NCBI GenBank assembly: GCA_016205145.1
Contig: JACQJH010000001.1
Coordinates: 580,964-612,963, forward strand
Source of the DNA: Candidatus Iainarchaeum sp.
GTDB lineage: Archaea; Iainarchaeota; Iainarchaeia; Iainarchaeales; JACQJH01
Length of the DNA: 32,000 bases
Direction of reading: 5' to 3'
A program made the translations under genes and the position numbers. This document shows positions 674-32,000 of the stretch, in pieces; position 1 is the first letter of the stretch, and each line of letters starts with the position of its first letter. A model generated the notes under the pieces. It saw nothing but the letters and a program-made list of their open reading frames with translations, was not told the DNA's origin and made no database searches.

Positions 674-704
674 ATGAAAAAATGATTTTGGGGCATGATG
701 CAGA

Positions 705-1913
705 ATGAAACTGTGGGACAAGGGCGGAAAAGGCGTTGACCCGCAAATTGGGGCGTTCACTGTCGGCAACGATTACATCATTGACAAGAAGCTTGCCAAA
801 TTTGATGCCATTGCGAGCATTGTGCACGCTAAAATGCTTGTGAAGGCGGGCTTCCTTTCTTCGTCAGAGGCGAAAAAGCTCGAGGGCGCGCTGAAGGAAA
901 TCATTGCGCTTGCTGAGGAAGGTAAATTCGAGATTTTGCAGGAGGATGAGGACTGCCACACCGCGATTGAAAAGTTTTTGACGAAAAAGCTTGGCGAAAC
1001 CGGCAAGAAGATTCACGCGTGCCGGTCGCGCAATGACCAGGTCATGGCGGCACTGCGCCTTTACTCGAAAAGCGAATGCGCGGAGATTGCGAAATCTTTG
1101 GAGAAGCTGATTGCGGCATTGAAGGAATTCGGCAAAAAAAACAACGACGTGAAAATGCCCGGTTACACGCATCTGCAGAAGGCAATGCCTTCATCGGTTT
1201 CGTTGTGGGCCGGCGCGTTTGCCGGTGCCTTGCAGGATGACCTTGCATTGCTGGAATTCTCGCAAAAGCTGGTTGACCAGAATCCTTTGGGGAGCGCTGC
1301 CGGTTACGGCGTTCCCGTTGCGATTGACCGCAAGCTGTCGACAAAACTGCTGGGCTTTTCCAAACTGCAGGAAAACGCATTGTATTGCGCGAATTCGCGC
1401 GGAAAATTTGAGGCGATTGTCCTTTCGGCGTGCGTGCAGGTTTCGCTTGACTTGAACAAGCTGGCAACTGATTTGCAATTGTTTTCCATGCCTGAATTCG
1501 GCTATTTTGAATTGCCTGAAGAATTGTGCACCGGCTCAAGCATAATGCCGCAGAAAAAGAATCCTGACGTTCTGGAACTGGTGCGCGCCAAAAGCCATGT
1601 CGTGCAAGGCGAATTGTTCAAGGTCCTCGGCATTGTCTCGAACCTGCCTTCAGGCTACAACCGCGATTTCCAGCTCACGAAAGAACCGTTCTTCAACGGC
1701 CTTGAAACAACGAAAGCTTCATTGCAGGTCATGGCATTGGCTGTTTCAAAGCTGAAGGTTGACAAGTGGAAGTGCGAGAATGCCCTCACAGCCGAATTGT
1801 TTGCAACCGAAAACGCCTTGAAAAAGGCGAAAGCCGGAATGCCGTTCCGCGAAGCGTACAAGGAAGCGGCGAAGGAACTGCTTGAAGGTAAAGGCAAGGC
1901 GAAAGGTGAATGA
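705..1913 (+). CDS. argH: argininosuccinate lyase (short, 402 aa)
   Basis: Carries the fumarate-lyase superfamily signature GSSIMPQKKNP. The N-terminus (MKLWDKG..., SIVHAKML) is typical of ArgH. ATG 705 lies 31 nt after the argG stop. Confidence 0.9.
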   Translation: MKLWDKGGKGVDPQIGAFTVGNDYIIDKKLAKFDAIASIVHAKMLVKAGFLSSSEAKKLEGALKEIIALAEEGKFEILQEDEDCHTAIEKFLTKKLGETGKKIHACRSRNDQVMAALRLYSKSECAEIAKSLEKLIAALKEFGKKNNDVKMPGYTHLQKAMPSSVSLWAGAFAGALQDDLALLEFSQKLVDQNPLGSAAGYGVPVAIDRKLSTKLLGFSKLQENALYCANSRGKFEAIVLSACVQVSLDLNKLATDLQLFSMPEFGYFELPEELCTGSSIMPQKKNPDVLELVRAKSHVVQGELFKVLGIVSNLPSGYNRDFQLTKEPFFNGLETTKASLQVMALAVSKLKVDKWKCENALTAELFATENALKKAKAGMPFREAYKEAAKELLEGKGKAKGE

Positions 1914-1914
1914 A

Positions 1915-2847
1915 ATGGCGAAGGATGGCAAGGCTGTAAAAAAAACCAGTGCAATTGATTTTTTGACCGGCAAGGAATTGTCGCCGAAGCAGGCTGAAAA
2001 GCTTTTGGATTTGGCAGTGAATGTCAAAAAGAATCCGGCAAAATTTTCCGGCGCCTTGAAGAACAAGACTCTTGCAATGCTTTTCCAGAAGACTTCGACG
2101 CGCACGCGCATGTCGTTCGAAGCGGGAATGACGCGCCTGGGCGGGCATGCGATTTTCCTGGACTGGCGCACTACAAACCTCGCGCTTGGCGCGCTGAAAG
2201 ACGAAGTGAAGTCGATGGAACGTTATTCCGACATTCTGATGGCGCGCGTTTTCAAGCATGAGGATATCCTTGCAATAGCAGAGGCCTCGTCAAAGCCGGT
2301 CATAAACGGCTTGTGCGACAAATGGCATCCGTGCCAGGCTCTCGCGGACTATTTGACGGTCAAGGAAAAGCTTGGCAAGGTGAAGGGCAAAAAGATTGCG
2401 TTCGTCGGCGACGGCAACAATGTGTGCAATTCCCTGATTGTGATTGGCGCCTTGCTGGGGGCAAAGGTTTCCATTGCAACGCCCAAGGGATTTGAGCCTT
2501 CGCAGGACGCGGTTTCGTTCGCAAAAGGCCTTGGCGCCGAACTGTTCATTTGCAATGATGCTAGCCTGGCGGCGAAAGGCGCGGACGTCGTTTACACTGA
2601 CACCTGGGTTTCAATGGGCCAGGAAGCGGATGCGCAGAAAAAGAACGAGGCGTTCAAGCCGTTCCAGGTGACAAGGGAAATTCTTGGCAATGCTTACTTC
2701 ATGCACTGCCTGCCGGCGCACCGCGGCTATGAGATGACAGACGAAGTGATTGACTCGCCCAAGTCGATTGTTTTCGACCAGGCGGAGAACCGCATGCATG
2801 CGCAAAATGCTTTGATTCTTTGGATGCTTGGAAAGGCAAAAATTTAA
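1915..2847 (+). CDS. argF: ornithine carbamoyltransferase
   Basis: Motifs STRTRMSFE, HPCQALAD and HCLPAHRG. ATG 1915 is 1 nt after the argH stop, with AGGTGA 5 nt upstream. The track ORF start at 1882 would overlap argH. Confidence 0.9.
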   Translation: MAKDGKAVKKTSAIDFLTGKELSPKQAEKLLDLAVNVKKNPAKFSGALKNKTLAMLFQKTSTRTRMSFEAGMTRLGGHAIFLDWRTTNLALGALKDEVKSMERYSDILMARVFKHEDILAIAEASSKPVINGLCDKWHPCQALADYLTVKEKLGKVKGKKIAFVGDGNNVCNSLIVIGALLGAKVSIATPKGFEPSQDAVSFAKGLGAELFICNDASLAAKGADVVYTDTWVSMGQEADAQKKNEAFKPFQVTREILGNAYFMHCLPAHRGYEMTDEVIDSPKSIVFDQAENRMHAQNALILWMLGKAKI

Positions 2848-2873
2848 CGAAAATGCGGTGTATGTTTGGGGTC

Positions 2874-4067
2874 ATGAAAATGGCAAGCTTCAGGGTTTTG
2901 GATGGAAAAGGCATTACCTGCGTGAAAGGCATAAAGGCTGTAGGAAAGTTTGCGGGCATCAAGTCGAGCCGCAAGGACTTCTGCGTTGTCGCTTCAGATG
3001 CGCCCGCCGCAATGGCCGCTGTTTTCACGCAGAACACCGCGCGCGCGCCGCCCGTCATTCTCGGCTTGGAGCGCCTGAAGCATGGAAAATGCCAGGCATT
3101 GAATGTCGTTTCCGGCGTAGCGAATGCAGGCACCGGAAAGGAAGGCTTGAAAAACGCAAAACTGCAGGCGAAACTTCTGGCTGATGAACTTGGCATTTCT
3201 GAAAAGCTTGCCATGGTGGGTTCGACCGGCATTATCGGAAAGCAGATGCCCATGGCAAAAATCGAGTCCGCGATGAATGGCGTGAAAGGCGAATTGTCTG
3301 ATTCGGAGAAGGCGGGGATGTCTGCGGTTGAGGCGATTATGACAACTGACACGAAGCCGAAGTTCATTGCGGTCCAGGCGAACGGTTTTGCCGTTGCGGG
3401 CATGGCGAAGGGTTCCGGCATGATCGCGCCCAATATGGCGACAATGCTTTGCTACATTTTCACGGACGCCGCCGTTGGGCAGAATGATTTGCAGGCAGGC
3501 CTTTCAAAGGCTGTTGAAAAAAGCTTCAACTGCATTTCCGTTGACGCGTGCGAGTCGACAAACGATACCGTGCTATTGCTTGCGAACGGCCTGTCCGGAA
3601 AAAGGCCTTCGCAAAAGGAATTTCAGGAAGCATTGGATTTTGTCTGCCTGGATCTGGCTAAAAAAATCGTTTTGGATGGGGAAGGCGCAAGCAAGATGTT
3701 TTCCGCGACAGTCAGGGGTGCAAGGGATTTTGGCAAGGCGAAGGAAATGGCTCTGGCCATTGTAAAGTCAGACCTTGTCAAGACCGCGGTTTTCGGCAAC
3801 GACCCGAACTGGGGGCGCGTTTTGCAGGCAATCGGCCAGACGCGCATTCCATTCGAAATGGAAACGCTTGCCATTTTTTTCGGAAAGGTTCAGGTTGTGA
3901 AAAACGGCCTTGCCGCGGACTTCAATCTGCAGGCAGCGCAGACGGAAATGTCGAAAAGCGGTTTTGAGATTATCGTGATTGCGGGCAACGGAAAAGGCGA
4001 GGCAACCGCTTACGGCTGCGATCTGACTGAAGGCTACATCAAGGTCAATGCGGAGTACCCGACCTGA
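2874..4067 (+). CDS. argJ: bifunctional ornithine acetyltransferase / glutamate N-acetyltransferase
   Basis: ArgJ self-cleavage and nucleophile block PNMATMLCYIFTDA. I chose the first ATG after the argF stop; the track ORF starts at TTG 2820. Confidence 0.88.
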   Translation: MKMASFRVLDGKGITCVKGIKAVGKFAGIKSSRKDFCVVASDAPAAMAAVFTQNTARAPPVILGLERLKHGKCQALNVVSGVANAGTGKEGLKNAKLQAKLLADELGISEKLAMVGSTGIIGKQMPMAKIESAMNGVKGELSDSEKAGMSAVEAIMTTDTKPKFIAVQANGFAVAGMAKGSGMIAPNMATMLCYIFTDAAVGQNDLQAGLSKAVEKSFNCISVDACESTNDTVLLLANGLSGKRPSQKEFQEALDFVCLDLAKKIVLDGEGASKMFSATVRGARDFGKAKEMALAIVKSDLVKTAVFGNDPNWGRVLQAIGQTRIPFEMETLAIFFGKVQVVKNGLAADFNLQAAQTEMSKSGFEIIVIAGNGKGEATAYGCDLTEGYIKVNAEYPT

Positions 4068-4116
4068 ATTGTATTATGGGCTCTGATTGGTTTATGGGAT
4101 TTTTGTTGGTGGAAGA

Positions 4117-5301
4117 ATGGCTGGAAAAATGAAACCCGAAAAGGTTTTTGCGCTTGACCGGGAGTTTTACATGAACTGCTTCCGGCGCAAGCCGATTGTC
4201 CTGGAAAAAGGAAAAGGCTGTTTTGTGTTCGACTCGCAGGGCAAAAAATACCTTGACTTTGTCGGCGCCCTCGCGACGTGCAGCGTCGGCTACTCCAATC
4301 CTGCTGTGACGAAGGCGATTTGCATTCAGGCAAAAAAGCTCGTGAACGCGACCAATTATTATTATACTGGACCGCAGGCACTGCTTGCCGAAAAGCTTGC
4401 GAAAATTTCCGGTTTGCAGAAGGTTTTCCTGTCAAATTCCGGGACAGAGGCAATGGAGGCCGCGTTCAAGCTCGCGCGCAAGTGCACTGGAAAGACGCAG
4501 ATCATTTCGACGGAGAACGCTTTCCATGGCCGCACTTTCGGCGCGCTGACTGCAACGTGGAACAAGGATTACAAGTCGATGTTCGAGCCATTGGTGCCGG
4601 GCTTCAAGACCGTTGCGTTCAATGACGCAAAGGCCCTGGAGGGAGCGATTGATGAAAACACCGCGGCATTCGTCGTCGAGCCGATCCAGGGCGAAAGCGG
4701 CATAAATGTTCCGCATGAAAATTACCTGAAAGCGGTTGCCGGAATATGCAAGGCAAAGGGCGTTCTTCTGATTCTTGACGAAGTGCAGACCGGTTGCGGC
4801 CGAACCGGCAAATTTTTCGCGTTCCAGCTTTCCGGCATCAAGCCGGACATTGTCGTCACGGCGAAGGGCCTTGCAAACGGCTTTCCCATCGGCGCGACTA
4901 TTTCGCGTGAAGGCCTTGATTTTGAGCCGGGCCAGCATGGCGGAACATTCGGCGGCAATCCCCTGGCCTGCAGCGCAGCGCTTGCGACAATAAAGGAAAT
5001 TGAGTCGAAAAAACTCGCGGCCGGTGCTGAAAAGAAAGGCAGGCTTTTCATGCAGAAGCTTTCGGGCCTGCAGAAAAAGTTTTCATTCGTTTCAGATGTG
5101 CGCGGAAAAGGATTGATGGTTGCGGTGCAGCTTTCCGGCGTTTCGGCAAAGGCAGTTGCCGGAAAGTGCCTTGCAAAGGGCCTGCTTGTCAACAGCATCG
5201 GCGACAACGTTTTGCGTTTCCTTCCTCCGCTGACGGTTTCGGAAAAAGAAATTTTGTCTGCAATCAAGGTTTTGGAGAAGGTGTTTGTGGAATGCGCGTA
5301 G
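4117..5301 (+). CDS. argD: acetylornithine aminotransferase (class III PLP aminotransferase)
   Basis: Blocks SNSGTEAMEAAFKLAR, LILDEVQTGCGRTGKFFA and VVTAKGLANG (PLP-Lys region). ATG 4117 is preceded by GGTGGAAG. The track ORF starts at TTG 4087. Confidence 0.88.
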   Translation: MAGKMKPEKVFALDREFYMNCFRRKPIVLEKGKGCFVFDSQGKKYLDFVGALATCSVGYSNPAVTKAICIQAKKLVNATNYYYTGPQALLAEKLAKISGLQKVFLSNSGTEAMEAAFKLARKCTGKTQIISTENAFHGRTFGALTATWNKDYKSMFEPLVPGFKTVAFNDAKALEGAIDENTAAFVVEPIQGESGINVPHENYLKAVAGICKAKGVLLILDEVQTGCGRTGKFFAFQLSGIKPDIVVTAKGLANGFPIGATISREGLDFEPGQHGGTFGGNPLACSAALATIKEIESKKLAAGAEKKGRLFMQKLSGLQKKFSFVSDVRGKGLMVAVQLSGVSAKAVAGKCLAKGLLVNSIGDNVLRFLPPLTVSEKEILSAIKVLEKVFVECA

Positions 5302-6284
5302 GCATAATCGGCGCTGCCGGGTTCGCGGGATTCGAACTTGTCAAAGTGCTGTCCAGCCATCCGAAAGCCGAGCTTGTTGCGCTGAATTCGAAAACGTTTG
5401 CAGGCACGAAAGTCAAATCGGTTTACCCGGAATTCCGGGACGAGAACCTTGCTTTCACGAATTATTCCGTCGGGGAGCTGAACGCCTTGGATTTGGACGT
5501 GGTTTTCCTCGCCGTTCCGCATGGCGCATCCATGCAACTCGCACCGACACTCAAATGCAGGGTAATAGATTTGGGTTCGGATTACCGGTTTCCCGACGCG
5601 AAGCTGTTCAAAAAGGTCAACGGCATCGGGCATGCTGACAAGAAGCATTTGAATGAATGGGTTTACGGCCTGCCGGAATTGTTCCGCCCGAAAATAAAAA
5701 AGGCAAAGCTTGTCGCAAATCCGGGCTGTTATGCGACCGCCTGCATTCTTGCGGGCCTGCCTCTGGCCAAGGAAAAGCTTTTTTCCAAGGCGGTTTTCGA
5801 CTGCAAGTCAGGCTACAGCGGCGCGGGAAGGGAGAAGGCGTCGGACAAGGCTTACATGCAGGGTTTGCGCGAAAACATCGTTCCCTACAAGCTTACGTCG
5901 CACAGGCACATGTTTGAAATGCAGCAGTTTTTGGGAAAAAGCGTTTCATTTTCGCCGCACGTCCTGCCGTTTTACCGCGGCATTGTAGCAACGGGCCATT
6001 TTTTCCTGAAAAAAAAACTGTCCGGCGGGGCGGTGCGCAAAAAGTTCGAAAAGTTTTACGCAAAAGAGCCTTTCGTGAAAATCGTCGAAGGCATTCCGAC
6101 AATGCAGGACATCCAGAAATCCAATTACTGCCTTATCGGCGGCTTCGAGGTTGATGACAACAACCGGCTTGTCATTGTGTCTGCGCTGGACAATCTTGTC
6201 AAAGGCGCGGCCGGACAGGCCGTGCAGAACATGAATTTGATGTTCGGCTTTGATGAAAAGCTCGGGCTGGAAGTCCTGCGGTGA
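5292..6284 (+). CDS. argC: N-acetyl-gamma-glutamyl-phosphate reductase
   Basis: Rossmann N-terminus MRVGIIGAAGFAGFELV and active-site Cys block NPGCYATA. ATG 5292 overlaps the argD stop by 10 nt. The longer track ORF from 5166 is an out-of-frame run through the argD 3' end. Confidence 0.9.
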   Translation: MRVGIIGAAGFAGFELVKVLSSHPKAELVALNSKTFAGTKVKSVYPEFRDENLAFTNYSVGELNALDLDVVFLAVPHGASMQLAPTLKCRVIDLGSDYRFPDAKLFKKVNGIGHADKKHLNEWVYGLPELFRPKIKKAKLVANPGCYATACILAGLPLAKEKLFSKAVFDCKSGYSGAGREKASDKAYMQGLRENIVPYKLTSHRHMFEMQQFLGKSVSFSPHVLPFYRGIVATGHFFLKKKLSGGAVRKKFEKFYAKEPFVKIVEGIPTMQDIQKSNYCLIGGFEVDDNNRLVIVSALDNLVKGAAGQAVQNMNLMFGFDEKLGLEVLR

Positions 6285-6336
6285 AACGCATGGTTCGATT
6301 TGAATCATGCCGTATGCTGTTGGTGGTTGTGGAACT

Positions 6337-7182
6337 ATGCCGGAAATAGTGCGTTATCTCAAGGAAGCATTGCCTTACATCAAAAAGTTCGAGGGAAAGA
6401 CTTTTGTGGTCAAGCTGTCAGGCAAGCTTCTGGATGATGCCGGTGTTTTGCGCGAAATCTGTGGGGACATCGTTTTGCTTGACGCCGTCGGCATTCACGT
6501 GGTTATAGTGCATGGTGCTGGCAAGCAGATTGACGTTGAAACGGAAAAGGCGGGCATTGAGAAAAAGGCCGTGAACGGCCTGCGGTTTACGGACGCCAGG
6601 ACGCTTGCGATTGTCAAAAAGGTTCTCGTTTCAACCAATGCCAAAATAGTTTCCTGCATAAAAAAATCCGGGGCGAATGTGCAGGGCATTGACGGCGTTT
6701 CGCAAAGCGTTATTCTGGCGGCAAAAAAATCTTCCGGCGGCCTGGATTTGGGATTTGTCGGGGCGCCCAAAAAAGCCGATGTCAAAAAATTTGCAAGCCT
6801 GCTTGCAAACGGCGTTGTGCCGGTTGTGGCTTGCCTTGGCAAAACCAGTAGCGGGCAGGTTTTGAACATCAATGCCGACGAGGTTGCCGTGGCAATCGCA
6901 AAGGCGTTGAAGGCGGAAAAGCTCATGATTTTGTCGGACGTGCCCGGCATTTTGCGCGACAAAAACGACAGGAACAGCCTGATTTCCGAGTTGACCGTTG
7001 CGGAAGCGAAAAAGCTTATTGCTGGCGGCGTGATTGCCAGTGGCATGGTTCCCAAAACCCTTGCATGCATTGATGCGCTGAATTCAAGCGTGAAGCGCAC
7101 GCACCTGATTGATGGTTTGGAACACTCGCTCCTGGTTGAAGTTTTCACGGATCTGGGAAAGGGCACGCTGATAAGGAAATGA
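6337..7182 (+). CDS. argB: acetylglutamate kinase
   Basis: Amino-acid-kinase blocks ALPYIKKFEGKTFVVKLSG and VVIVHGAG. ATG 6337 has GGTGG about 10 nt upstream. ATG 6307 is an alternative start. Confidence 0.88.
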   Translation: MPEIVRYLKEALPYIKKFEGKTFVVKLSGKLLDDAGVLREICGDIVLLDAVGIHVVIVHGAGKQIDVETEKAGIEKKAVNGLRFTDARTLAIVKKVLVSTNAKIVSCIKKSGANVQGIDGVSQSVILAAKKSSGGLDLGFVGAPKKADVKKFASLLANGVVPVVACLGKTSSGQVLNINADEVAVAIAKALKAEKLMILSDVPGILRDKNDRNSLISELTVAEAKKLIAGGVIASGMVPKTLACIDALNSSVKRTHLIDGLEHSLLVEVFTDLGKGTLIRK

Positions 7183-7281
7183 CCACTACCGCGTCTGCAA
7201 GGGGCAATGATGGGGTGAAAACCAATTTTGGTGTTTGTTGCCGGCGCAAGGTTTAAATTTCGTGTGCTGTTCTATTTGATA

Positions 7282-7644
7282 ATGGATTTTTCAAAAAAGT
7301 TTTTTCTCGGAGTCTCGGTTCTTGCCCTGCTTTTTGTCTTGGGTTGCGCGCAGTCGAACCCAAAAATGGATTCTTTAGCCAAGTGCCTGACGGACAAGGG
7401 GGCAAAGTTTTACGGCGCCTACTGGTGCCCGCATTGCCTGGAGCAGAAAAAGGATTTCGGCGGCAGCGTTGACAAGCTCAACTACATTGAATGCGCGATC
7501 CAGGGCCAGAACGGGCAGACGCAGGCCTGCATTGACGCGCAGATAAAAGGCTATCCGACCTGGACTTTTGCCGACGGCTCAAGGCTTGAAGGCAGGCTGC
7601 CATTGCCGACGCTTGCCCAGAAAACCGGCTGTGAAGCGCCATAA
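7282..7644 (+). CDS. exported thioredoxin-fold CxxC lipoprotein
   Basis: Signal peptide with lipobox (LALLFVLGC), redox motif YWCPHC and a second Cys pair downstream. ATG 7282 is the start that yields the signal peptide. Confidence 0.7.
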   Translation: MDFSKKFFLGVSVLALLFVLGCAQSNPKMDSLAKCLTDKGAKFYGAYWCPHCLEQKKDFGGSVDKLNYIECAIQGQNGQTQACIDAQIKGYPTWTFADGSRLEGRLPLPTLAQKTGCEAP

Positions 7645-7672
7645 ACCCGGCCTTGTCGTGCGCAAAAGTAGC

Positions 7673-7680
7673 TTTTAAAA
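7673..7680 (+). promoter_or_regulatory. TATA box (TTTTAAAA) for argS; centre about 28 nt upstream of ATG 7705
   Basis: An A/T box inside otherwise G+C-rich DNA. The same spacing to the start codon recurs at leuS, dinB and the 17176 ORF, and to the 5' end of the RNase P RNA. Confidence 0.5.
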
Positions 7681-7704
7681 CACCTTATTCCATTTCTTTT
7701 TTTC

Positions 7705-9432
7705 ATGCCGGATTTTAAGGAACAGCTTGCGCTTGCCCTGGCAAAGGCGCTGGACGGAAAGCTTTCCGAAAGCGAAATTCTCGGAATGCTTGAAGTGCCA
7801 CCGTCGGCCGACTTGGGCGATTTTGCGTTTCCCTGCTTCAAGCTTTCGCCTTTGCTGAAAAAAGGCCCGCAGCAGATTGCGGTTGAATTGCAGGCAAAAA
7901 TTGTTTTGCCGCAGTCTTTTTTGCAGGCAAAATCCATCGGGCCATACCTCAACTTTTTTCTCAAAAAGAAGGTGCTTGCGGAAACCGTCATTGTGCGCGT
8001 TTTGAAGGAAAACAAAAAATTCGGCTTTTCAAAGGCCGGAAAAGGCAGAAAAGTGATGGTCGAGTACAGCAGTCCGAACACCAACAAGCCATTGCACATA
8101 GGCCATTTGCGCAACGATTCGATTGGCATGGCGGTCTCGAACATCCTTGAGGCAAACGGCTGCAAGGTGTTGAGGGCAAATCTTGTCAATGACCGCGGCA
8201 TCCACATCTGCCAGTCCATGCTTGCATACCAGAAATTCGGCAAGGGCAAATCGCCGAAGCAGGCAAAGAAAAAATCCGACCATTTTGTCGGCGACTATTA
8301 CGTTTTGTTCGCGCAGAATGCCAAGGAAAATCCTGCATTTGAAGAGGACGCAAAGGCTTTGCTGAAAAAATGGGAGGCGAAAGACAAGCCCACGATTGCG
8401 TTGTGGAAAAAAATGAACGCATGGGTTTTGTCCGGTTTCAGGGAAACCTACAAACGGTTCGGCTCGCGGTTTGACAAGTTCTTTTTTGAATCGGATTTTT
8501 ATGACAAGGCCAAGCCTTTGATTGATGATGGCCTGCGGAAGGGCGTTTTCACAAAGGAATATGATGGCGCAATTGTTGCCGACCTTGAGGCATTCAAGCT
8601 TTCCAAGAAAATCGTTTTGCGCGCGGACGGCACGAGCATTTACGTCACCAATGACCTCGCTTTGACGATGCACAAGTTTGAGAAGTTCAGCATTGACGAA
8701 GCATTGTGGGTGGTTGCCTCGGAACAGAACTTTTATTTCATGCAGCTGTTCAAGATTTTCGAACTGCTCGGCTTTTCCTGGGCGAAAAAATGCAGGCACC
8801 TGAGCTATGGTATGGTTTTCCTGCCGGAAGGAAAAATGAAGAGCCGCGAGGGAAAAGTTGTCGATGCTGACGACTTGATTGTGGAAGTTGTTGGATTGGC
8901 AAAAACCGAGATTTTGAAGCGCGAGCCGCAAATTTCGAAAAAAGAGCTTGAAAAAAGGAGCCTGGCGATTGCCCTCGCGGCGATAAAGTTTTTCCTTTTG
9001 CGCGTAAGCATCCAGCAGGACATAACCTTCAATCCTGCGGAAAGCGTTTCCTTTGACGGCGAAACAGGGCCGTACGTGCAGTACACCCATGCGCGGGCGA
9101 AAAGCATTCTTGCAAAGGCGAAAGGCAGGCCGAGCGTCAAAGGGGCGGATTTTTCACTGCTCGAATCCGAAAGCGAAAAGAAGGTGCTTTCACTGCTCAA
9201 CGCATATCCCGCGCTGGTCGAGAACAGCCTTCAAAGCCTTTCCCCGCACGCTGTCTGCCAGTACCTTCTGGAATTGTCCGCGGCATTCAACTCGTTTTAC
9301 CATTCCGAGCAGGTTTTGAAGGCGGAAAGCAAGGGGCTTGTCAATGCACGGCTGCTGCTCGTGCAGGCAACTGCAACGGTCATTGCAAACGGCCTGAGGC
9401 TGCTGAACATCGAGCCGATAGAAAAAATGTGA
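7705..9432 (+). CDS. argS: arginyl-tRNA synthetase
   Basis: Class I aaRS with HIGH motif NKPLHIGHLRN. 575 aa. The C-terminal anticodon-binding region ends ...NIEPIEKM, typical of ArgRS. Confidence 0.9.
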   Translation: MPDFKEQLALALAKALDGKLSESEILGMLEVPPSADLGDFAFPCFKLSPLLKKGPQQIAVELQAKIVLPQSFLQAKSIGPYLNFFLKKKVLAETVIVRVLKENKKFGFSKAGKGRKVMVEYSSPNTNKPLHIGHLRNDSIGMAVSNILEANGCKVLRANLVNDRGIHICQSMLAYQKFGKGKSPKQAKKKSDHFVGDYYVLFAQNAKENPAFEEDAKALLKKWEAKDKPTIALWKKMNAWVLSGFRETYKRFGSRFDKFFFESDFYDKAKPLIDDGLRKGVFTKEYDGAIVADLEAFKLSKKIVLRADGTSIYVTNDLALTMHKFEKFSIDEALWVVASEQNFYFMQLFKIFELLGFSWAKKCRHLSYGMVFLPEGKMKSREGKVVDADDLIVEVVGLAKTEILKREPQISKKELEKRSLAIALAAIKFFLLRVSIQQDITFNPAESVSFDGETGPYVQYTHARAKSILAKAKGRPSVKGADFSLLESESEKKVLSLLNAYPALVENSLQSLSPHAVCQYLLELSAAFNSFYHSEQVLKAESKGLVNARLLLVQATATVIANGLRLLNIEPIEKM

Positions 9433-12256: not shown

Positions 12257-14290
12257 TCAGGTTACCATTGTGGCCTCTGTTTTCCAGCCCAATTCAACCA
12301 GTTTTTCCACGTTTTTTCTGCCGGTTTCAGTGGAATTGTCGACCCATATTTCTATCTTGTCGCCGCGCGGGCACTGGCACGCCATGCAGACAATTGTTCC
12401 AGGCGGTGCCGGAATGTTTTTGTATGAAACAACCGGAATGCCGTGGACGATTGAATAATATTCCTTTAATATTTCTTCTTCTGTCGGCGCCCTGATGTAA
12501 ACTCTGTTCAGGTCAGCATGCCATTTCTCCCACGGGTTTTCGCCGCATTGGATCGGCGCGTATGTGAGGACGGTTGTCGAAACATTTTTTTCGCCGATCG
12601 TGAATTCATCGCTTTGGGCTGTTGAGCCGTTCCCTTCCCAAATTTTTTCATTGTCATAATAGGTTATTCGCGCCTTGAATGTTCCGGTTGCCATGGTCTG
12701 CACCGGCATGGGTTCGCCGTTGACCCATTCCTTTCCGTCCCATTCTATTTCCCTTGACTGGCCCGGCTTCAGTTCGTCCGCGCTTGGCGCGCATGCCGCC
12801 ATTATCAGGGGATTTGAAATCTGCACCGGCTTCCATTCCCCGTTTTCAAGGCGGATGATTGAAAGCGGCCCGCACAGCACTGTGCCGGGCTGGATGAAAA
12901 CGCTTTTGTCCGAATCATTTGTCGCGGTAATTTTCACGGTTTCGCCCGAGGAATAGCTTTGCCTGTCGGTCTTGGCTTCAACTTTTCCGTTTCCGGGTTG
13001 TTCGCGTATTTTGACCAGCACATACATTTGCCTGATTTCCTTTGTCGGCTTGACGCTGTATTCAGATGGAACCTGTTCGTCGTACCAGCTTTGCGGCAGC
13101 ACGTAACTCAGGCGCTGCCACGTCCCGGCATTTGTCGGATAAAACATGTTCTTGTACCAGGCATTCGCAAAAGCGTTCGCCTCGCTCTTGGTGAAGCCTT
13201 TGCTTGTCAGGTCGTTTTCAAGCAGCTTTGCGTCGGGCGTGAAATCCTTCAGTTCAAGCGCGACAGTTTGCCCGGCATCGATTTTTTCGGCTGTTGCGGC
13301 TTCGACATTCGTTTCCCAGAACCCGCCGCCGTTGCTTGCAACAAATCTTGCATTGTAAACGGCAAAATCGTTGCCGTTGGTGAGGCTTACCGAATTGCCG
13401 TTTCTCTTTGCCTTGACCCTGTTTTCGAATTGCATTTCTCCTTCGTAAAACAAAAATTTGTGCTTTTTCCCGTCGATCCACAGGTCATCCGAATCAACGT
13501 TTCCGAGTTGCGGTTCAATGGATTCGATCGGCGGGCGGTAACCCTTGCTTGTGGCAAGTGCCCTGGATGGTGTTTCCTGTTTCAGTGAAACACTGCTCCA
13601 GCCCGCGGTTTTGCCGTCTGCGGTTCCGCCGGGATAGACGTCCGTGACCTTTCCGCTTGGAAGGGTGTATTTCGCCGAAAATTTGTCAACATTTTTTGCA
13701 TGAAAGTAAACAATTGGAAGTTTTACCATTGCATCCACTTCGGGCCTGCTTGTCAGAATCGCATTTGATTCGTTTTCGTGGGCTTCTATTACGCCCCACT
13801 CGTGAGCCTCGAATTTGTAATCCGTGGGTGGCGGTTCATTGTCTGGAATTTTTCCCGGATATTTTTCGAAAACAACGGGTTTTGCTGTTTTTGGAATCTT
13901 GATTATGTGATATGGCTGCACGAATGCCTGCGTGCACATTGCACCCTCCGAAGGTTCCGGCTTGTCGACAAGCGCGTAAACGTTCGACTGGGTCTGGCGC
14001 ACATCCTTTATTTCAATTGTGTAACAGCCATTCGGTTTCGAACCGAGCGCTGCCGCAATGACAGTGTATTTGTCAAAATCCATTTCAGGCATCTCTGGCT
14101 GCGGCGAAACGTTCTGCTTCAATTCCGACCAAAAACCGGCGAAGGATTTGGCATCATTGAAGACAAGGTTTCTTGCAGCCTGGATTCCGGAATTCTGGCC
14201 TTTTTCAACGGTTTCAAAGCCGACTTTTTCAATGCAGCCTGCCAGAACAAGGATTGAAAGCAGTGCGAGCGCGGCCAGGATTTTTTTCAT
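12257..14290 (-). CDS. large secreted lipoprotein, function unknown (PrcB-like N-terminal region, BsuPI-like Ig region)
   Basis: [19 protein letters not shown] signal peptide with lipobox. ATG 14290 is preceded by GGTGG. The block [13 protein letters not shown] resembles the PrcB C-terminal motif. [18 protein letters not shown]...[13 protein letters not shown] resembles BsuPI-type inhibitor folds. The domain calls are from memory only. Confidence 0.75.
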
Positions 14291-14399
14291 CAAACCACCA
14301 TTTGTTGCATTTTTGCCTATACGCACTATGGCTTTTGGTATTTAAAGGGCTTTTTGTTTGCTTAGGTAAAAGGCTAACGCTGGAATTTGCCTTGGAAAA

Positions 14400-22071: not shown

Positions 22072-22111
22072 GACGGACTTTCGTTTCATTGTTCGCATAA
22101 CAATTAACTCT

Positions 22112-25080
<2,969 letters not shown>

Positions 25081-25557: not shown

Positions 25558-25630
25558 TGGACCCGACGGGATTCGAACCCGTGGCCTCCGCGATGCAAAC
25601 GCGGCGCTCTACCAGCTGAGCTACAGGCCC
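25558..25630 (-). tRNA. tRNA-Ala (anticodon UGC), CCA not encoded
   Basis: The cloverleaf folds by hand. Acceptor stem GGGCCTG/CGGGTCC includes the G3:U70 alanine identity pair. D arm is GCTC..GAGC. Anticodon stem is CCGCG/CGCGG with loop TTTGCAT. T arm is ACGGG TTCGAAT CCCGT. Discriminator is A. Confidence 0.93.
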
Positions 25631-25987: not shown

Positions 25988-27475
<1,488 letters not shown>

Positions 27476-27844: not shown

Positions 27845-27910
27845 TTTAAAAACCTATCGGGCGGGCCGGGCTTGTTTAAAAAGTTCCAAGCGCGGGCTTT
27901 TGTTAAAAAA
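27845..27910 (-). promoter_or_regulatory. three TTTAAAAA-type boxes about 30 bp apart (27845-52, 27875-82, 27903-10): candidate tandem rRNA promoters
   Basis: Read on the minus strand, they match the TTTTTAAA boxes seen upstream of leuS, dinB and RNase P RNA. They lie 370-435 nt upstream of the 16S 5' end. Orientation is ambiguous because the box is nearly palindromic. Confidence 0.35.
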
Positions 27911-27953
27911 GCCCATAAATTGCTTTTTATGTTTTTCCGCCATAAATTTTCAA

Positions 27954-28427
27954 ATGACTAATGCGGATAAAGGGTATAATTTAGTCAAAAAACTCGATAA
28001 TGGAAAAATTGCTTGTTATCAATTTGAATTTGAAGGAAAACCTATTGCGGCATATATAGGGGTTACAGTTGCAAGTGAAAACAAAATTGGTGGAGGCGGG
28101 AAAGTGGGCGCAAATCCTCTTGACCCTTCAATAAGTGCCCAAGCTATGAAAGAAAACAAAACAGAATACCAATGGGAAAAATATACGACTTCTGCATTTG
28201 CGGCAACCCACCCAGAAATCAGAAGTAAGGAAGTAAGATTGGAATTAGATAGGAAAGTTACTCAGATTTCAGGAGTTGCTGTAATGAATGCTCCGATTCA
28301 AGAACTCCCGCCTAACCAAGCTATAATTACGCCTTCGGGGGCGCTTTTGTCTACTTCTACAGGAACACTTCAAGCCAATACTGATTTTACCCTTGATAAA
28401 CTAAAAAAACATTTTACTAAATATTGA
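27954..28427 (+). CDS. hypothetical protein (157 aa)
   Basis: ATG 27954 is the first start inside the AT-rich DNA. The upstream 108 codons of the track ORF run through the G+C-rich rRNA leader and look non-coding. No family recognised. Confidence 0.6.
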   Translation: MTNADKGYNLVKKLDNGKIACYQFEFEGKPIAAYIGVTVASENKIGGGGKVGANPLDPSISAQAMKENKTEYQWEKYTTSAFAATHPEIRSKEVRLELDRKVTQISGVAVMNAPIQELPPNQAIITPSGALLSTSTGTLQANTDFTLDKLKKHFTKY

Positions 28428-28446
28428 AACCATTTCTAAGCCCGCA

Positions 28447-28514
28447 TGCAGGAGACTGCAGGAGGAAGTCTTTTAAAGAGAAACACACACCTATAGTGCA
28501 GGAGAGTGCAGGAG
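28447..28514 (+). promoter_or_regulatory. four direct copies of TGCAGGAG in two pairs flanking a TATA-like box TTTTAAAG (28471-28478)
   Basis: Copies at 28447-54, 28457-64, 28497-504 and 28507-14. Spacing is 10 bp within each pair and 50 bp between pairs. The last copy also supplies an AGGAG ribosome-binding site 4 nt before ATG 28518. Confidence 0.7.
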
Positions 28515-28517
28515 ACA

Positions 28518-29429
28518 ATGTACCCAACTATACCTACTTTAGCCACATTACCAGAAGGCCTTAAACAAGCAGTGGCAGAAAATGACTTGCCATTAGAGGT
28601 AGCACTCCAATTAACCAAATTGAATAACCCGTTTGTAAACGAGAAAATGGTTCAAGTGATAAAAAGAAAAAAGAAATATGAAAGAGACCTTTTGAAAAAT
28701 GCTTTAGCTGCCGTTAAAAAAAGTAGCCAAATGAAAACCAAAATAAATGGATTAAAAAAAATAGTTGATTCAGGAATAACTCTCTCTTCGGTTTGGGATT
28801 TTGGTAACAGAGATAACTATGCAGGCGATGCAAATTTTTATGGAAATGCTCCAACCCAAGTCGTTGAACAGTGTATTCTGAGGCTTACTAAAGAAACTGA
28901 TTTCGTTGTAGACCCTATGGCTGGTTCTGGGACAACAATCGATGTATGTAAGGCATACAACCGAAAAGTCAAAGCGTTTGATTTAACTCCGACCAGAAAA
29001 GAAGTAGTCCAAAATGATAGTAGAAATATCCCTTTGAGAGATTTTTCTACAGATTTAGTTTTTCTTCATCCGCCTTATTGGGATATGGTGAAATACTCTA
29101 TAAAACAAAATGACATATCACGACTTCCTCTAAATAACTTTTTGGATAGTATGACCCAAATCATAAATGAATCTCAAAGAATTTTGAAAAAAGATAAATA
29201 TCTATGTATCTTGATAGGAGATATAGTAAGAAAAGGAAAATTTATTTCACTATCAAGAAAGTTATCAAACATTTGTGAGAACGCAGGATTAGAAGATGCT
29301 GGATACGCAATTAAGATTACAAAAGATTCTACCAGCCAAAGAAGAAGAGGAAAAGCTATATACGCAGAACTTGCGGCAACAAAAAATTTGAAGCAAAATC
29401 ACGATATAATTATGTTTTGGAAAAAATGA
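28518..29429 (+). CDS. SAM-dependent PPY-type amino-methyltransferase (probable DNA N6-A/N4-C methylase) with a ParB-HTH-like N-terminal segment
   Basis: Motif I FVVDPMAGSGTT lies about 52 aa before motif IV LVFLHPPYW, with acidic motif II/III residues between (KAFDL, QNDSRNIPL). The N-terminal LPEGLKQAVAENDLPLEVALQLTKL resembles the helix pair after the ParB HTH. The track start is GTG 28506; ATG 28518 is preferred. Confidence 0.8.
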   Translation: MYPTIPTLATLPEGLKQAVAENDLPLEVALQLTKLNNPFVNEKMVQVIKRKKKYERDLLKNALAAVKKSSQMKTKINGLKKIVDSGITLSSVWDFGNRDNYAGDANFYGNAPTQVVEQCILRLTKETDFVVDPMAGSGTTIDVCKAYNRKVKAFDLTPTRKEVVQNDSRNIPLRDFSTDLVFLHPPYWDMVKYSIKQNDISRLPLNNFLDSMTQIINESQRILKKDKYLCILIGDIVRKGKFISLSRKLSNICENAGLEDAGYAIKITKDSTSQRRRGKAIYAELAATKNLKQNHDIIMFWKK

Positions 29430-30143
29430 TTATTCTTTTGATATTTTTACCAATTCATTTTTTTGTTGTTCGGTTTTACTTTTTTCATATTCTTTTTTTC
29501 CATTCACAAATTCTTGAACTGCATTGTCAGGCAACGGGTGTACCCCTTTCCCATCAATTCGTGCCATTTTTATTTTTCCGCCTACGTCACCATCAATACT
29601 AATTGTTTCAACCATTGTTTTAGCAACTAAAAAACACATTTCATCTACTCCATAATTTTTATCATATTCTTTTGACAGGATATAACGTGCAATGAAGGGT
29701 TTGCCTTCAGCAACTGTATTATCCCCTCTTCCCGAGAAAAACAAATTTTCACTTCTTAAAACATAAATTTTTGGCATAACTTTAGTTTTTATTTTATCTA
29801 ACCCTGCGATAATTATTGTAACGCTTGGAAAACTTTTACTTCGTGGGTTTATAGTATCTGATATATGGGAAATTTCTTTTTTACAAAATCTTTTAAATTC
29901 AGAAACAACATCAGTTACATACCATTTTTTTGTTTTTGAATATTTATATTTAAAATCTTCTATTAACTGCATGGCTATCTCAGGGTCACCTGCAACTAGC
30001 GCACAAGAATAATCAGTCAATTGAATCATTTTTTGCGCAACTAAAGATTCCATTCTCGAACCGTCGTTATCTACCCACGTTCCTTTACTATCCGCAGCGA
30101 GAACTAAATAATCTTTTCCAGATACCGCAATAACAAGTGTCAT
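29430..30143 (-). CDS. stand-alone proteasome-beta/HslV-like Ntn peptidase
   Basis: Begins MTLVIAVSGKDYLVLAADSKGT. This places Thr directly after Met (Thr1) and Asp at mature position 17, with a QKMIQL lysine matching the Lys33 region. Overall length and block order resemble archaeal proteasome beta (my recollection of the Thermoplasma sequence). It has a K/E-rich C-terminal tail. Confidence 0.7.
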   Translation of the reverse strand: MTLVIAVSGKDYLVLAADSKGTWVDNDGSRMESLVAQKMIQLTDYSCALVAGDPEIAMQLIEDFKYKYSKTKKWYVTDVVSEFKRFCKKEISHISDTINPRSKSFPSVTIIIAGLDKIKTKVMPKIYVLRSENLFFSGRGDNTVAEGKPFIARYILSKEYDKNYGVDEMCFLVAKTMVETISIDGDVGGKIKMARIDGKGVHPLPDNAVQEFVNGKKEYEKSKTEQQKNELVKISKE

Positions 30144-30147
30144 ACTT

Positions 30148-30711
30148 TCACGTTTCCTTATTTACTCTTTGTGTCACAAGACTTGTTACAATTTGATTAA
30201 TAGTTTTATTTTGCTTTTTTGCTATTTTTTTTAATTTTTCAAATTGCTCATTTTCTAAGGAAACAACAACTAAGTTTAATGTGGCTTTTAGCTCCTTTGA
30301 CTTTTTTAATCGATTAATTTGATTTTCTATTGAGACCCCGCGATTATTTTTTGCAAACCTTATCATATCCCTTGCATCGTGTGCACTAAGCCCAACTATT
30401 GAGTTAGCAATTCTTATTTGGTCTTCTTTGTTTTTGATTGCTAACAGCCTCCAACCCAAGTCTTGAGTAATTTTATTTTCTTTTATTAATTGCTTTATCT
30501 CTGATGGCAAATCTAAAAGTTTTATAGTAGAACGAACCATTTCTCTGGACAATGAAAGCAACTTTGCAACTTTTCCATCAGACTTATATTTATCTTTAAG
30601 CTCCTTGAATTTTTCGGCTAAAAATATCCAGTCGTGGGTTTGTTTTCCTTTTGCCTTAAAATTAGAATATATGATGGCAAATATTTCATCTTCATCAACT
30701 TTTTTAGTCAT
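30148..30711 (-). CDS. ParB-HTH-only protein with a C-terminal ribbon-helix-helix-like segment
   Basis: KVAKLLSLSREMVRSTIKLLDLPSEIKQLIKENKITQDLGWRLLAI is a ParB HTH-domain pattern, and no ParB/Srx N-domain is present. The C-terminus LNLVVVSLENEQFEKLKKIAKKQNKTINQIVTSLV fits a beta-alpha-alpha (RHH) pattern. There is an ATGA overlap with the upstream gene. Confidence 0.7.
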   Translation of the reverse strand: MTKKVDEDEIFAIIYSNFKAKGKQTHDWIFLAEKFKELKDKYKSDGKVAKLLSLSREMVRSTIKLLDLPSEIKQLIKENKITQDLGWRLLAIKNKEDQIRIANSIVGLSAHDARDMIRFAKNNRGVSIENQINRLKKSKELKATLNLVVVSLENEQFEKLKKIAKKQNKTINQIVTSLVTQRVNKET

Positions 30712-31541
30712 TCTTCTTGTCCCCTAACGTAACCCTTGATTATTTCGGTGAGAAGGTCTTCTATGCCAATTTTATTTTTACTATTGTTTGCAATTCCTTG
30801 AATTTTATCGAAGTCAGACCTATCAACTAAAACAGTGAGTTTAATTTTTCTGGAAGGTTTTTTTGCCTCGGCTAATATTTCTTCAATAGATGCATCTTTA
30901 TTTTCCATACCCACATCTAGTATATTATCCCATTCTGGTTTTGTCATTCCTATCATATGTCTTGCAATTTTCACGATTTTTTCCGATTTTGGCCAAAAAG
31001 CAGTAGTTAATTTATAGGCTTGTTTCGGGTCAAGTTTTTTTTCAGCTACCATGTCTCTTACTTCTTTTGGTATGATTCGGTAAGAGAGATATTTAGTAAC
31101 TGTTTGAAGAGATAAACCAACATCCGCAGCTACTTGTTCTAATCTCTTTGATTGCGTCCCCGTATACTTACTAAATAATTCATCACATACTCTAATAGTG
31201 TCATTATACGGCAGTTTTGTTCTATTGACATTTTCAGAGAATGAAATAATTCTTTTTGTTAACTCATTAACATTATTGATTAATATTGCTGGAATTTCTT
31301 CTCGTTTTAATTCTTCGAATGCCCTAAATCTTCTTTGCCCTACAAGAACTTTGAATTTTTTATTTCCTTTTCCTTCGGTTAAAAGTATGGGGTGGATAAG
31401 TCCGACATTTTCTATACTCGCTTTTAGCACATCTAGATTATTTTTTCTACCTTCAGTTCTAACATTTAAAGTGTCAACTTCAATATCGTTAATGTTTGCT
31501 TCAAAATATTTTCTATCTTTTATATAGTCAAGTGTAGCCAT
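30708..31541 (-). CDS. ParB/Srx-domain protein with HTH and a C-terminal ribbon-helix-helix-like segment
   Basis: The ParB N-domain shows the arginine patch VLVGQRRFRAFEEL (GxRRxRA type) and IHPILL. The HTH is QVAADVGLSLQTVTKYLSYRIIPKEVRDMVAEKKL. The C-terminus is KLTVLVDRSDFDKIQGIANNSKNKIGIEDLLTEIIKGYV. ATG 31541 is preceded by AGGTGA. The track start at 31568 is less likely. Confidence 0.8.
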   Translation of the reverse strand: MATLDYIKDRKYFEANINDIEVDTLNVRTEGRKNNLDVLKASIENVGLIHPILLTEGKGNKKFKVLVGQRRFRAFEELKREEIPAILINNVNELTKRIISFSENVNRTKLPYNDTIRVCDELFSKYTGTQSKRLEQVAADVGLSLQTVTKYLSYRIIPKEVRDMVAEKKLDPKQAYKLTTAFWPKSEKIVKIARHMIGMTKPEWDNILDVGMENKDASIEEILAEAKKPSRKIKLTVLVDRSDFDKIQGIANNSKNKIGIEDLLTEIIKGYVRGQEE

Positions 31542-31549
31542 ATAGTCAC

Positions 31550-31846
31550 CTAGTGGGTGGCATTCCAATTATCTCGTAAATTTTTCCATTCTTCAATAGT
31601 TATTTCTTTTCTGCCTAATTTACTATTTATCTCAGAAATAAAATCGCCATAGTCTTTAACTTTTTTATCTTTTTGTTCAGCCTTTTCCACTTCCGAACTT
31701 AACTGTTCAATATCTTTGATGTCGTGATTTATCGAAAAGTGTTTCAGGATATCCTTAAATTCGCATTTACAAATTGGGCAAAAATTATTTGTCAATCTAC
31801 CACCTTGTTTTTTGTCTTTTTGAAACCCCTTTGACTTAAAGCCCAC
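31550..31846 (-). CDS. small C2H2-type zinc-finger protein
   Basis: CPICKCEFKDILKHFSINH gives the pattern C-x2-C-x9-H-x4-H. The maximal ORF starts at GTG 31846. The more likely start is TTG 31795, which overlaps the TGA stop of the upstream 50-aa ORF (TTGA) and follows AAGGTGG. Confidence 0.6.
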   Translation of the reverse strand: MGFKSKGFQKDKKQGGRLTNNFCPICKCEFKDILKHFSINHDIKDIEQLSSEVEKAEQKDKKVKDYGDFISEINSKLGRKEITIEEWKNLRDNWNATH

Positions 31847-31944
31847 TTAAAAAGCTTGGTTGGGCTTATTTGATTATTTTCAAGAAACTTCTTTTCATCG
31901 TTAGTTAAGGAAACGGAAACCCATTTAATTCCAGAATTAGCCAT
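31792..31944 (-). CDS. 50-aa ribbon-helix-helix-like protein (below the ORF-track size cut-off)
   Basis: Hand translation gives MANSGIKWVSVSLTNDEKKFLENNQISPTKLFKWALSQRGFKKTKNKVVD. The beta strand (KWVSVSL) followed by two helices fits an RHH pattern. It is the first gene of the operon and sits downstream of an AT-rich, TATA-rich region (31945-32000). Confidence 0.5.
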   Translation of the reverse strand: MANSGIKWVSVSLTNDEKKFLENNQISPTKLFKWALSQRGFKKTKNKVVD

Positions 31945-32000
31945 ATATGCCAAATTATATAAGTTATACAATAACTTTAAAAGCTTATTATATTATATAA

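Follow-up and report, generated by a model that had tools for sequence, protein, structure and literature searches.

The window analysed here is a stretch of 32,000 nucleotides from Candidatus Iainarchaeum sp. and makes up the final 32 kb of contig C1 (JACQJH010000001.1), one of the two contigs (C1 and C2) of a 1.25 Mb genome that is 97.8% complete and has a GC content of 51%. From about position 27,900 to the contig end the GC content falls to 0.31-0.38, against 0.51 for the host. This low-GC segment holds seven open reading frames (ORFs), namely a minus-strand operon of five genes, in which two ParB-type proteins are followed by a proteasome-like peptidase, and two plus-strand genes, the second of which encodes a DNA methyltransferase. 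We refer to the part of this group that recurs elsewhere as the cassette. In window coordinates the genes are as follows.

27954-28427, plus strand: 157-aa ORF, lying inside the inverted repeats described below; GC 0.38
28518-29429, plus strand: DNA methyltransferase of 303 aa (N6_N4_Mtase)
29430-30143, minus strand: proteasome-beta-like N-terminal nucleophile (Ntn) hydrolase of 237 aa, here called the peptidase
30148-30711, minus strand: ParB2, 187 aa
30708-31541, minus strand: ParB1, 277 aa
31550-31795, minus strand: C2H2-type Zn-finger protein, 81 aa from the TTG at 31795 or 98 aa from a GTG at 31846
31792-31944, minus strand: 50-aa protein, first gene of the operon

The operon is tightly packed. 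The TTG start of the Zn-finger gene overlaps the stop of the 50-aa gene (TTGA), and its own TAG stop is followed after 8 nt by the ATG of ParB1 (31541), with an AGGTGA over the stop. ParB1 and ParB2 share an ATGA overlap (30711-30708), and a gap of 4 nt separates the ParB2 stop from the ATG of the peptidase (30143). An earlier note on this DNA had described these four junctions, and all of them, like the seven ORFs, are found exactly so in the sequence. At the other end of the operon, the stop codons of the peptidase (29430) and of the convergent methyltransferase (29429) adjoin with no gap between them.

The segment is part of a mobile element which had been overlooked in the earlier note. 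Positions 27859-32000 of the window and the first 1215 bases of C2 together form a single DDE_Tnp_1 (IS4/IS5-type) transposon, at least 5.3 kb long and inserted 385 bp upstream of the 16S rRNA gene. Its contents are the seven ORFs and a transposase only. All features of such an element are present: a transposase of the DDE type, inverted repeats at both termini and a duplicated target site.

27859-27867 (left) and C2:1207-1215 (right, outside the window): target-site duplication GGGCGGGCC, 9 bp, flush against the inverted repeats
27868-27885, plus strand (left), and C2:1189-1206 (right): perfect terminal inverted repeat of 18 bp
27894-27914, with a mirror copy at C2:1138-1158: subterminal palindromic element GGGCTTTT-GTTA-AAAAGCCC
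C2:15-1190: transposase, DDE_Tnp_1 (PF01609, 4e-18)

The 15-mer core of the inverted repeat occurs only twice in the genome, at the two ends of the transposon. The transposase on C2 is 38-41% identical to those of three other loci (L011, L008 and L027; such handles denote contigs used in the comparison), which lie upstream of the cassette in divergent orientation. We infer from the terminal repeats and from synteny with L011 that C1 and C2 abut. In L008 a related inverted repeat (26-64 / 4682-4720) surrounds transposase and cassette; since its orientation relative to the repeat of the window is ambiguous, it serves as support only. Repeats containing TTTAAAAAG at 27860-27915 had been considered as tandem rRNA promoters, a reading dropped in view of the mirror copies and the 9-bp duplication on C2.

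Chance juxtaposition, or a chimeric assembly in which foreign low-GC genes became joined to the rRNA operon, would be in keeping with the foreign GC content, with the position of the genes at a contig end and with the fact that misassembly is common at rRNA regions. Against this, the perfect inverted repeats and the 9-bp duplication tie both ends of the element to host-GC DNA on two contigs, which argues that C1 and C2 adjoin and that the island is truly integrated, and at least 11 assemblies, independent of one another, show this gene order. We therefore regard an artefact, which the earlier note had named as a possible refutation, as very improbable.

Homologues of the peptidase, 35-56% identical to it, were found on contigs from many samples, and the loci come mostly from DPANN metagenomes and metagenome-assembled genomes (MAGs). 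The order Zn-finger protein, ParB_N protein (270-283 aa), HTH_ParB protein (181-201 aa) and peptidase is the same in every locus that extends far enough upstream, which gives at least 11 loci, independent of one another and differing in their flanks, namely the window, L007, L008, L011, L012, L020, L023, L027, L037, L063 and the P0013 contig. The cassette of L007, from an Aenigmatarchaeota MAG, is flanked by housekeeping genes, and those of L008, L027 and L063 by insertion sequence (IS) elements and restriction-modification (RM) systems. In L027 a composite island (687-9332) splits a glycosyltransferase gene and contains a DDE transposase, two extra N6_N4 methyltransferases, the cassette and an MvaI/BcnI-type endonuclease. 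Of 371 Aenigmatarchaeota genomes, two have a strong match to the peptidase; the same two, and no others, have one to ParB2. Within the host order the cassette is present in one of 41 genomes, and the peptidase in none of 40 relatives of the host. The genes thus co-occur well beyond this locus, as the earlier note had required of a genuine system. Two further ORFs were observed in this comparison: a PolB-exonuclease-like gene of 173 aa adjoins the cassette of L063, an Aenigmatarchaeota genome (L063:7196-7717), and a 191-aa ORF in a second low-GC island of the host (L003:9031-9606) resembles it, by eye only.

The last gene of the operon encodes what looks, from its sequence and its structural model, like an active Thr1 hydrolase. 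The protein matches the Pfam family Proteasome (2.7e-10) and starts M-T-L with no propeptide, and position 2 of its profile aligns with Thr1 of mature beta subunits. M1-T2 (Thr1), D18 (Asp17), K38 (Lys33-equivalent), S131 and a D-x-D-V-G-G segment are invariant in 14 sequences, so that the N-terminal Thr nucleophile, Asp17, Lys33 and the Ntn alpha-beta-beta-alpha fold are all present. Its AlphaFold2 model (pLDDT 87) superposes on 20S beta subunits with a TM-score of 0.75-0.83 and carries a C-terminal helical tail of ~30 residues. Compared as a group, not family by family, 20S beta, HslV, Anbu, BPH and Connectase have the same Ntn fold and the invariant Thr1/Asp17/Lys33, and HslV is likewise without a propeptide. 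The cassette peptidase differs from this group by its helical tail and by having no linked alpha subunit or HslU-type ATPase; no dedicated ring partner of either kind was found in any cassette examined. The host's own proteasome alpha and beta genes lie elsewhere, on C2, and score 159-186 bits against PF00227, compared with 41 for the island protein.

An exhaustive profile search gave 69 clusters (50% identity) of the peptidase family at E<1e-30 and 222 at E<1e-10, and 101 of 149 profile matches start with MTL, MTV or MTI. Linkage to ParB is kept down to ~150 bits and is gone at ~125 bits or below; the association is therefore confined to roughly the top 65-80 clusters. In the peptidase tree the clade of the window is resolved (99/98) and the deep branches are not. 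Among the distant propeptide-less relatives, on the P0129 and P0087 (L039:5001-5720) contigs, one has a TaqI_C-like methyltransferase and a GIY-YIG nuclease as neighbours, and a second lies between the genes for ribosomal proteins L4 and L23.

ParB1 was matched by Pfam ParB_N (1e-12) and HTH_ParB (3.5e-4) and by TIGR00180 (5e-20), and its best PDB matches are ParB and Noc (8e-19). The motifs GLIHPI (Box I), GQRRxxA and ENxxR are invariant across its orthologues. With these nucleotide motifs, a helix-turn-helix (HTH) and a C-terminus that resembles the dimerising ribbon-helix-helix (RHH) type, ParB1 is predicted to be a clamp of the ParB-CTPase kind. ParB2 matches HTH_ParB (2e-11) and RHH_4 (2e-4), has no N-terminal NTPase domain and is a paralogue of residues 118-274 of ParB1 (hhalign 99%, 3e-18). 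Its model consists of a helical part followed by an unpaired stretch and two helices, which is compatible with an RHH fold that would require a dimer partner, and a weak match to ParG (1p94, E 0.03) was observed. The Zn-finger protein keeps the pattern C-x2-C-x9-H-x4-H in seven orthologues and has a helical tail; its orthologue in L063 matches zf-Di19 (1e-3). Profile and fold searches thus bear out the families that had been proposed for the methyltransferase, the peptidase, both ParB proteins and the Zn-finger protein.

The same does not hold for the 50-aa protein, which had been called an RHH protein: no Pfam match was obtained up to E 10, the best PDB match was MazE9 with an E of 1.7, and searches with RHH-family profiles were empty. 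It is found again in L011 (74% identical), and a paralogue of 55-56% identity lies at C1:568195-568314 in the second low-GC island. The 157-aa ORF, described before as an orphan, is indeed an ORFan; no Pfam, PHROG, PADLOC or NCBIfam match was found, nor any homologue among 5.8e9 proteins or in the sister loci. At its position the sister loci carry other small genes, such as a PIN-like gene of 185 aa (L011) and one of 61 aa (L007). Neither small protein is a constant part of the cassette.

One explanation of the cassette is a stability or addiction module, with the ParBs as centromere-binding or silencing factors and the peptidase acting with labile regulators in post-segregational killing of the toxin-antitoxin type. 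The IS-type transposons that carry the cassette, its combination of a protease with small DNA-binding proteins, and the RHH-type C-termini, which recall centromere binders of the ParG and omega type (the ParG match given above), are all points in its favour. However, the elements are integrated in chromosomes, as the housekeeping flanks in L007 illustrate, and hence offer no replicon to partition. The earlier note had seen no ParA and had asked what lies past the window. Beyond the window end we found the DDE transposase and the end of the transposon, and the whole element, its C2 part included, contains no ParA, integrase or replication gene; more than 100 kb separates it from the nearest ParA/MinD-like (CbiA/AAA_31) genes, which lie at C1:493993 and C2:432171. 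No ParA/Soj-type ATPase lies beside the cassette in L007, L011, L012, L027 or L063, and in L008 a CbiA-like gene is ~2 kb away. The ParA-binding peptide [LIFV]G[KR]G[LIFV], a motif taken from a survey of the ParB fold, is absent from the first 60 residues in 8 of 8 ParB1 orthologues. The cassette thus differs from ParABS in lacking both an adjacent ATPase and the peptide that would bind it. Moreover, a stability module leaves the modification gene unexplained. We consider this explanation improbable.

The methyltransferase matches N6_N4_Mtase (8e-20) and PADLOC MTase_II (5e-25). It is permuted, with motif I (DPMAGSGTT) before motif IV (HPPY), and both motifs are invariant; orthologues in sister loci are 52-78% identical to it. 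A ParB-HTH-like N-terminus had been proposed for this protein, for which nothing was found beyond a weak match of 36 columns to residues 61-96 of ParB2 (hhalign 43%). A tightly convergent modifier gene was observed in 14 of 16 loci, and in half of these it is not a methyltransferase: seven encode a methyltransferase and seven a PAPS_reduct protein. At the convergent junction the genes overlap by up to 26 nt (L063) or are up to 20 nt apart. When four of the PAPS_reduct proteins were scanned with PADLOC, three matched SspD (1e-31 to 1e-33) and the fourth matched BrxP (1e-16) and SspD (5e-13). Because the deep branches of the peptidase tree are unresolved, the number of exchanges between the two enzymes cannot be counted. 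An apparently decayed cassette was also observed on a 96-kb contig (L025:6085-8359), where the peptidase is reduced to a 93-aa fragment; next to it lie an IS240 transposase and an SspD-like gene that is still intact and has its operator repeats.

The promoter of the methyltransferase contains repeated elements, and the following features were mapped in the window.

28447-28464, plus strand: distal operator, tandem TGCAGGAG-N2-TGCAGGAG, preceding the TATA-like box
28470-28478, plus strand: TATA-like box CTTTTAAAG of the methyltransferase promoter
28497-28514, plus strand: proximal operator, tandem TGCAGGAG-N2-TGCAGGAG, separated from the ATG by 3 nt
31975-31983, minus strand: TATA-like box CTTTTAAAG in the promoter of the operon, 17 nt from the contig end

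The four copies of TGCAGGAG (at 28447, 28457, 28497 and 28507) form two pairs 50 bp apart, one on either side of CTTTTAAAG and directly before the ATG of the methyltransferase; the window holds six copies in all against 0.85 expected, and tandem pairs occur at no other place in the 1.25 Mb genome. Four copies bracketing a promoter had been reported earlier for the plus-strand pair as a whole. The copies are there, but they lie between the 157-aa ORF and the methyltransferase and bracket the promoter of the latter only. The methyltransferase TATA-like box was called by eye and from conservation across loci, not with a promoter model. The methyltransferase ATG and the first ATG of the operon are each preceded, at a distance of ~35-45 nt, by the identical 9-mer CTTTTAAAG, and the two promoters may share a TATA/B recognition element (BRE) design.

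Across the loci, the promoter of the modifier contains tandem repeats on its sense strand, built on a CAGGA core and recurring every 10-12 bp, which in most cases flank the TATA-like box on either side. They take the form of TGCAGGAG pairs in five methyltransferase loci and of close variants in L027 and in five PAPS-reductase loci. The repeats found are tandem and direct, not palindromic, and no systematic search for palindromic (parS-like) sites was made. As unrelated modifiers are combined with an unvarying core operon, recognition of the repeats is most simply ascribed to one of the core proteins, be it ParB1, ParB2 or the Zn-finger protein. The earlier note had proposed that the two halves of the locus are functionally linked, and the evidence for this is now stronger than what it had offered, because a modifier of either enzyme type is the partner of the operon and carries the same operator repeats.

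These observations can be combined in more than one way. In one of them the cassette has no restriction arm and is ParB-assisted modification cargo: the ParBs would repress the promoter of the modifier and either bring the enzyme to double-stranded DNA or activate it there, the peptidase would only turn over regulators, and the mark would have an epigenetic role or protect element and host alike against the restriction systems already present. Precedents for such assistance exist, in that a DNA dioxygenase, the ParB-dependent 5mYOX (PMC13229309), strictly requires phage ParB homologues for its activation on double-stranded DNA, DpdB is a ParB-like ATPase required for base insertion and DndB is a ParB-family regulator. 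Phages commonly carry ParB-methyltransferase fusions, the methyltransferase itself has the weak ParB2-like stretch at its N-terminus, and the cassette is without a nuclease. What this explanation leaves unaccounted for is the active-looking Thr1 hydrolase, which is kept in every locus. The swap between methylation and an SspD-type enzyme, moreover, is typical of self-marking systems and less expected of a device for evading particular restriction enzymes, and scans of the viral contigs of IMG/VR, viral genomes being the usual place of anti-restriction modifiers, found no cassette. On balance we find modification cargo a rather unlikely explanation, if a better one than an addiction module.

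The reading that we tentatively prefer, at somewhat less than even probability, is that the cassette is a mobile self-marking system similar to RM and BREX (bacteriophage exclusion) systems, in which control of the modifier and the sensing of DNA would fall to the ParB proteins, with the peptidase as effector or timer. We favour it on account of the swap of the marker with its partners kept, the precedents of ParB proteins paired with modifiers, repression of the KorB type, IS mobility, RM-rich neighbourhoods and the sporadic distribution. A methyltransferase is replaced by a PAPS reductase in BREX type 4 (PMC12839542), ParB-family partners of DNA modifiers include DndB, DpdB and GmrSD, and the KorB clamp represses promoters together with its small partner KorA (PMC11790492). 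Under the self-marking reading, the modification enzyme would mark resident DNA, and ParB1 and ParB2 would bind the CAGGA-core repeats flanking the modifier TATA box through their RHH or HTH domains. This binding would set the level of modifier expression, much as DndB acts on dnd genes and KorB acts with KorA on RK2. ParB1 may in addition load as a clamp on DNA and report its modification state. The Thr1 hydrolase would then be the output, either by degrading a regulator and so timing the system after transfer to a new host, or as a proteolytic effector once unmarked DNA is sensed. A more specific version, an archaeal mobile immune or selfish class in which a CTP-gated ParB clamp reads the modification state set by an interchangeable methyltransferase or phosphorothioation-type enzyme and the stand-alone Thr peptidase serves as executioner or switch, is to our minds less probable still. 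The weight left over by the self-marking reading and its three rivals goes to other roles.

Several points weigh against a self-marking system. No nuclease or recognised restriction component was found in the cassette with Pfam, PHROGs, PADLOC or NCBIfam, any restriction or abortive activity is hypothetical, as is the substrate of the peptidase, and the roles of all cassette members are predicted from sequences and models. The core gave no match to a PADLOC 2.0 system. The CAGGA-core repeats are absent in L007 and L021, and where present the proximal repeat contains AGGAG and could be a simple ribosome-binding site. L023 has no adjacent modifier gene, and we know of no SspD-like enzyme that makes phosphorothioate DNA alone, without SspABC. 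The Glu of the canonical GERR motif matters for CTP hydrolysis in ParB; ParB1 has an invariant Gln in its place (GQRR), and its clamp cycling may therefore differ. Finally, scans of IMG/VR with profiles of the peptidase, the methyltransferase and ParB1 found no cassette, and only distant methyltransferases (31-53%) and generic ParBs; as the cassette was not found in viral contigs, there is no signal of an arms race.

Comparison with described systems places the cassette among them without assigning it to any. Like BREX, Ssp and Dnd, it pairs a DNA-marking enzyme with partners that do not look like nucleases. It shows the same exchange as BREX (type 1 versus type 4), in which the marker is a methyltransferase or a PAPS-reductase-family protein and the rest is kept, and the PAPS reductases of its sister clades match SspD and BrxP models. 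BREX also includes a protein with a protease domain, BrxL. However, PglZ, BrxC, BrxA, BrxB, SspABC and DndACDE are all absent, none of the window proteins has any such match, and in their place stand a ParB clamp, a truncated ParB and a proteasome-type Thr hydrolase within only ~3.5 kb. A ParB/Srx-fold protein encoded beside a modifier, as here, is also found in DndB-DndC, DpdB-DpdA, ParB-5mYOX and ParB-methyltransferase fusions, where it regulates or activates the modifier. None of these pairs has a peptidase; the cassette adds one, together with a full ParB of the chromosomal type and an HTH-only paralogue.

The KorB-KorA and KorB-TrbA systems of RK2 resemble the cassette in combining a ParB-CTPase clamp with a small DNA-binding partner on a mobile element and with promoter operators. 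The cassette differs in its tandem direct 8-mer operators, which are not palindromes, in the ParB paralogue as partner, in having no ParA (IncC) and in its archaeal host. Type II RM systems are likewise mobile, sporadic and found in islands, and share with the cassette the tight convergence, a modifier with its own operator promoter, small DNA-binding proteins at the head of the operon and a methyltransferase with S-adenosylmethionine-binding and HPPY motifs, but no restriction endonuclease is recognisable in the cassette with the four databases named above. The core proteins gave only generic ParB or methyltransferase matches in PADLOC, PHROGs and NCBIfam, and no known system. A full-text literature search returned no paper linking ParB with a proteasome-like protein and none on the peptidase family, and a recent survey of the ParB-CTPase fold makes no mention of a proteasome-like partner. 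PADLOC 2.0 and the literature thus agree with the earlier opinion that no system of this composition has been described. The component families and the logic of a marker with partners are known; the composition, as far as these searches go, is not, and there is a substantial chance that it represents a distinct class.

The remainder of the window identifies the host. It encodes an archaeal rRNA operon on the minus strand (16S 25989-27474; tRNA-Ala 25558-25630; 23S 22111-25080) and an RNase P RNA. The nearest named relatives of its arginyl-tRNA synthetase are from Candidatus Diapherotrites/Iainarchaeum MAGs (54-62% identity), and genomes of the host order (n=40) measure 0.5-1.5 Mb. Together these point to a DPANN archaeon related to Iainarchaeota/Diapherotrites. 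An arginine-biosynthesis cluster at 705-7182 (Lyase_1/ArgH-like, ArgJ, a class-III aminotransferase and an amino-acid kinase) is above the usual biosynthetic capacity of DPANN-type genomes, and a 689-aa protein at 12257-14326 (minus strand), whose sole Pfam match is PrcB_C (1e-11), lies between the leucyl- and alanyl-tRNA synthetase genes. The second low-GC island (C1:564000-569000; L003:3000-9600), ~12 kb upstream of the window, has a 652-aa gene of the NPPY methyltransferase/restriction-endonuclease-like type with a 248-aa neighbour, and other low-GC islands are at C1:388-390 kb, C1:510-513 kb and C2:405-409 kb. By eye, the terminal bases at the start of C1 (C1:1-75, L005) look like a tRNA whose anticodon is CAT. 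The end of C2 is near a TFIIE-alpha gene, and the junction of C1 start and C2 end may also be near-complete.

ParB clamps are associated with chromosome and plasmid segregation and, more recently, with gene silencing, and proteasome-family hydrolases with protein turnover. If the more specific version with a CTP-gated clamp is true, neither a proteasome-family enzyme nor a bona fide ParB clamp would have been seen before at the core of a defence or addiction system. A conserved mobile cassette of ParB, peptidase and interchangeable modifier would widen the roles of both families. At ~3.5 kb it would be a compact model for reading the modification state of DNA without a classical nuclease, and its conserved operator and small size make it directly testable. 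It would also add a type of defence system or selfish element from the DPANN archaea, a group with few described mobile elements and little-studied immunity.

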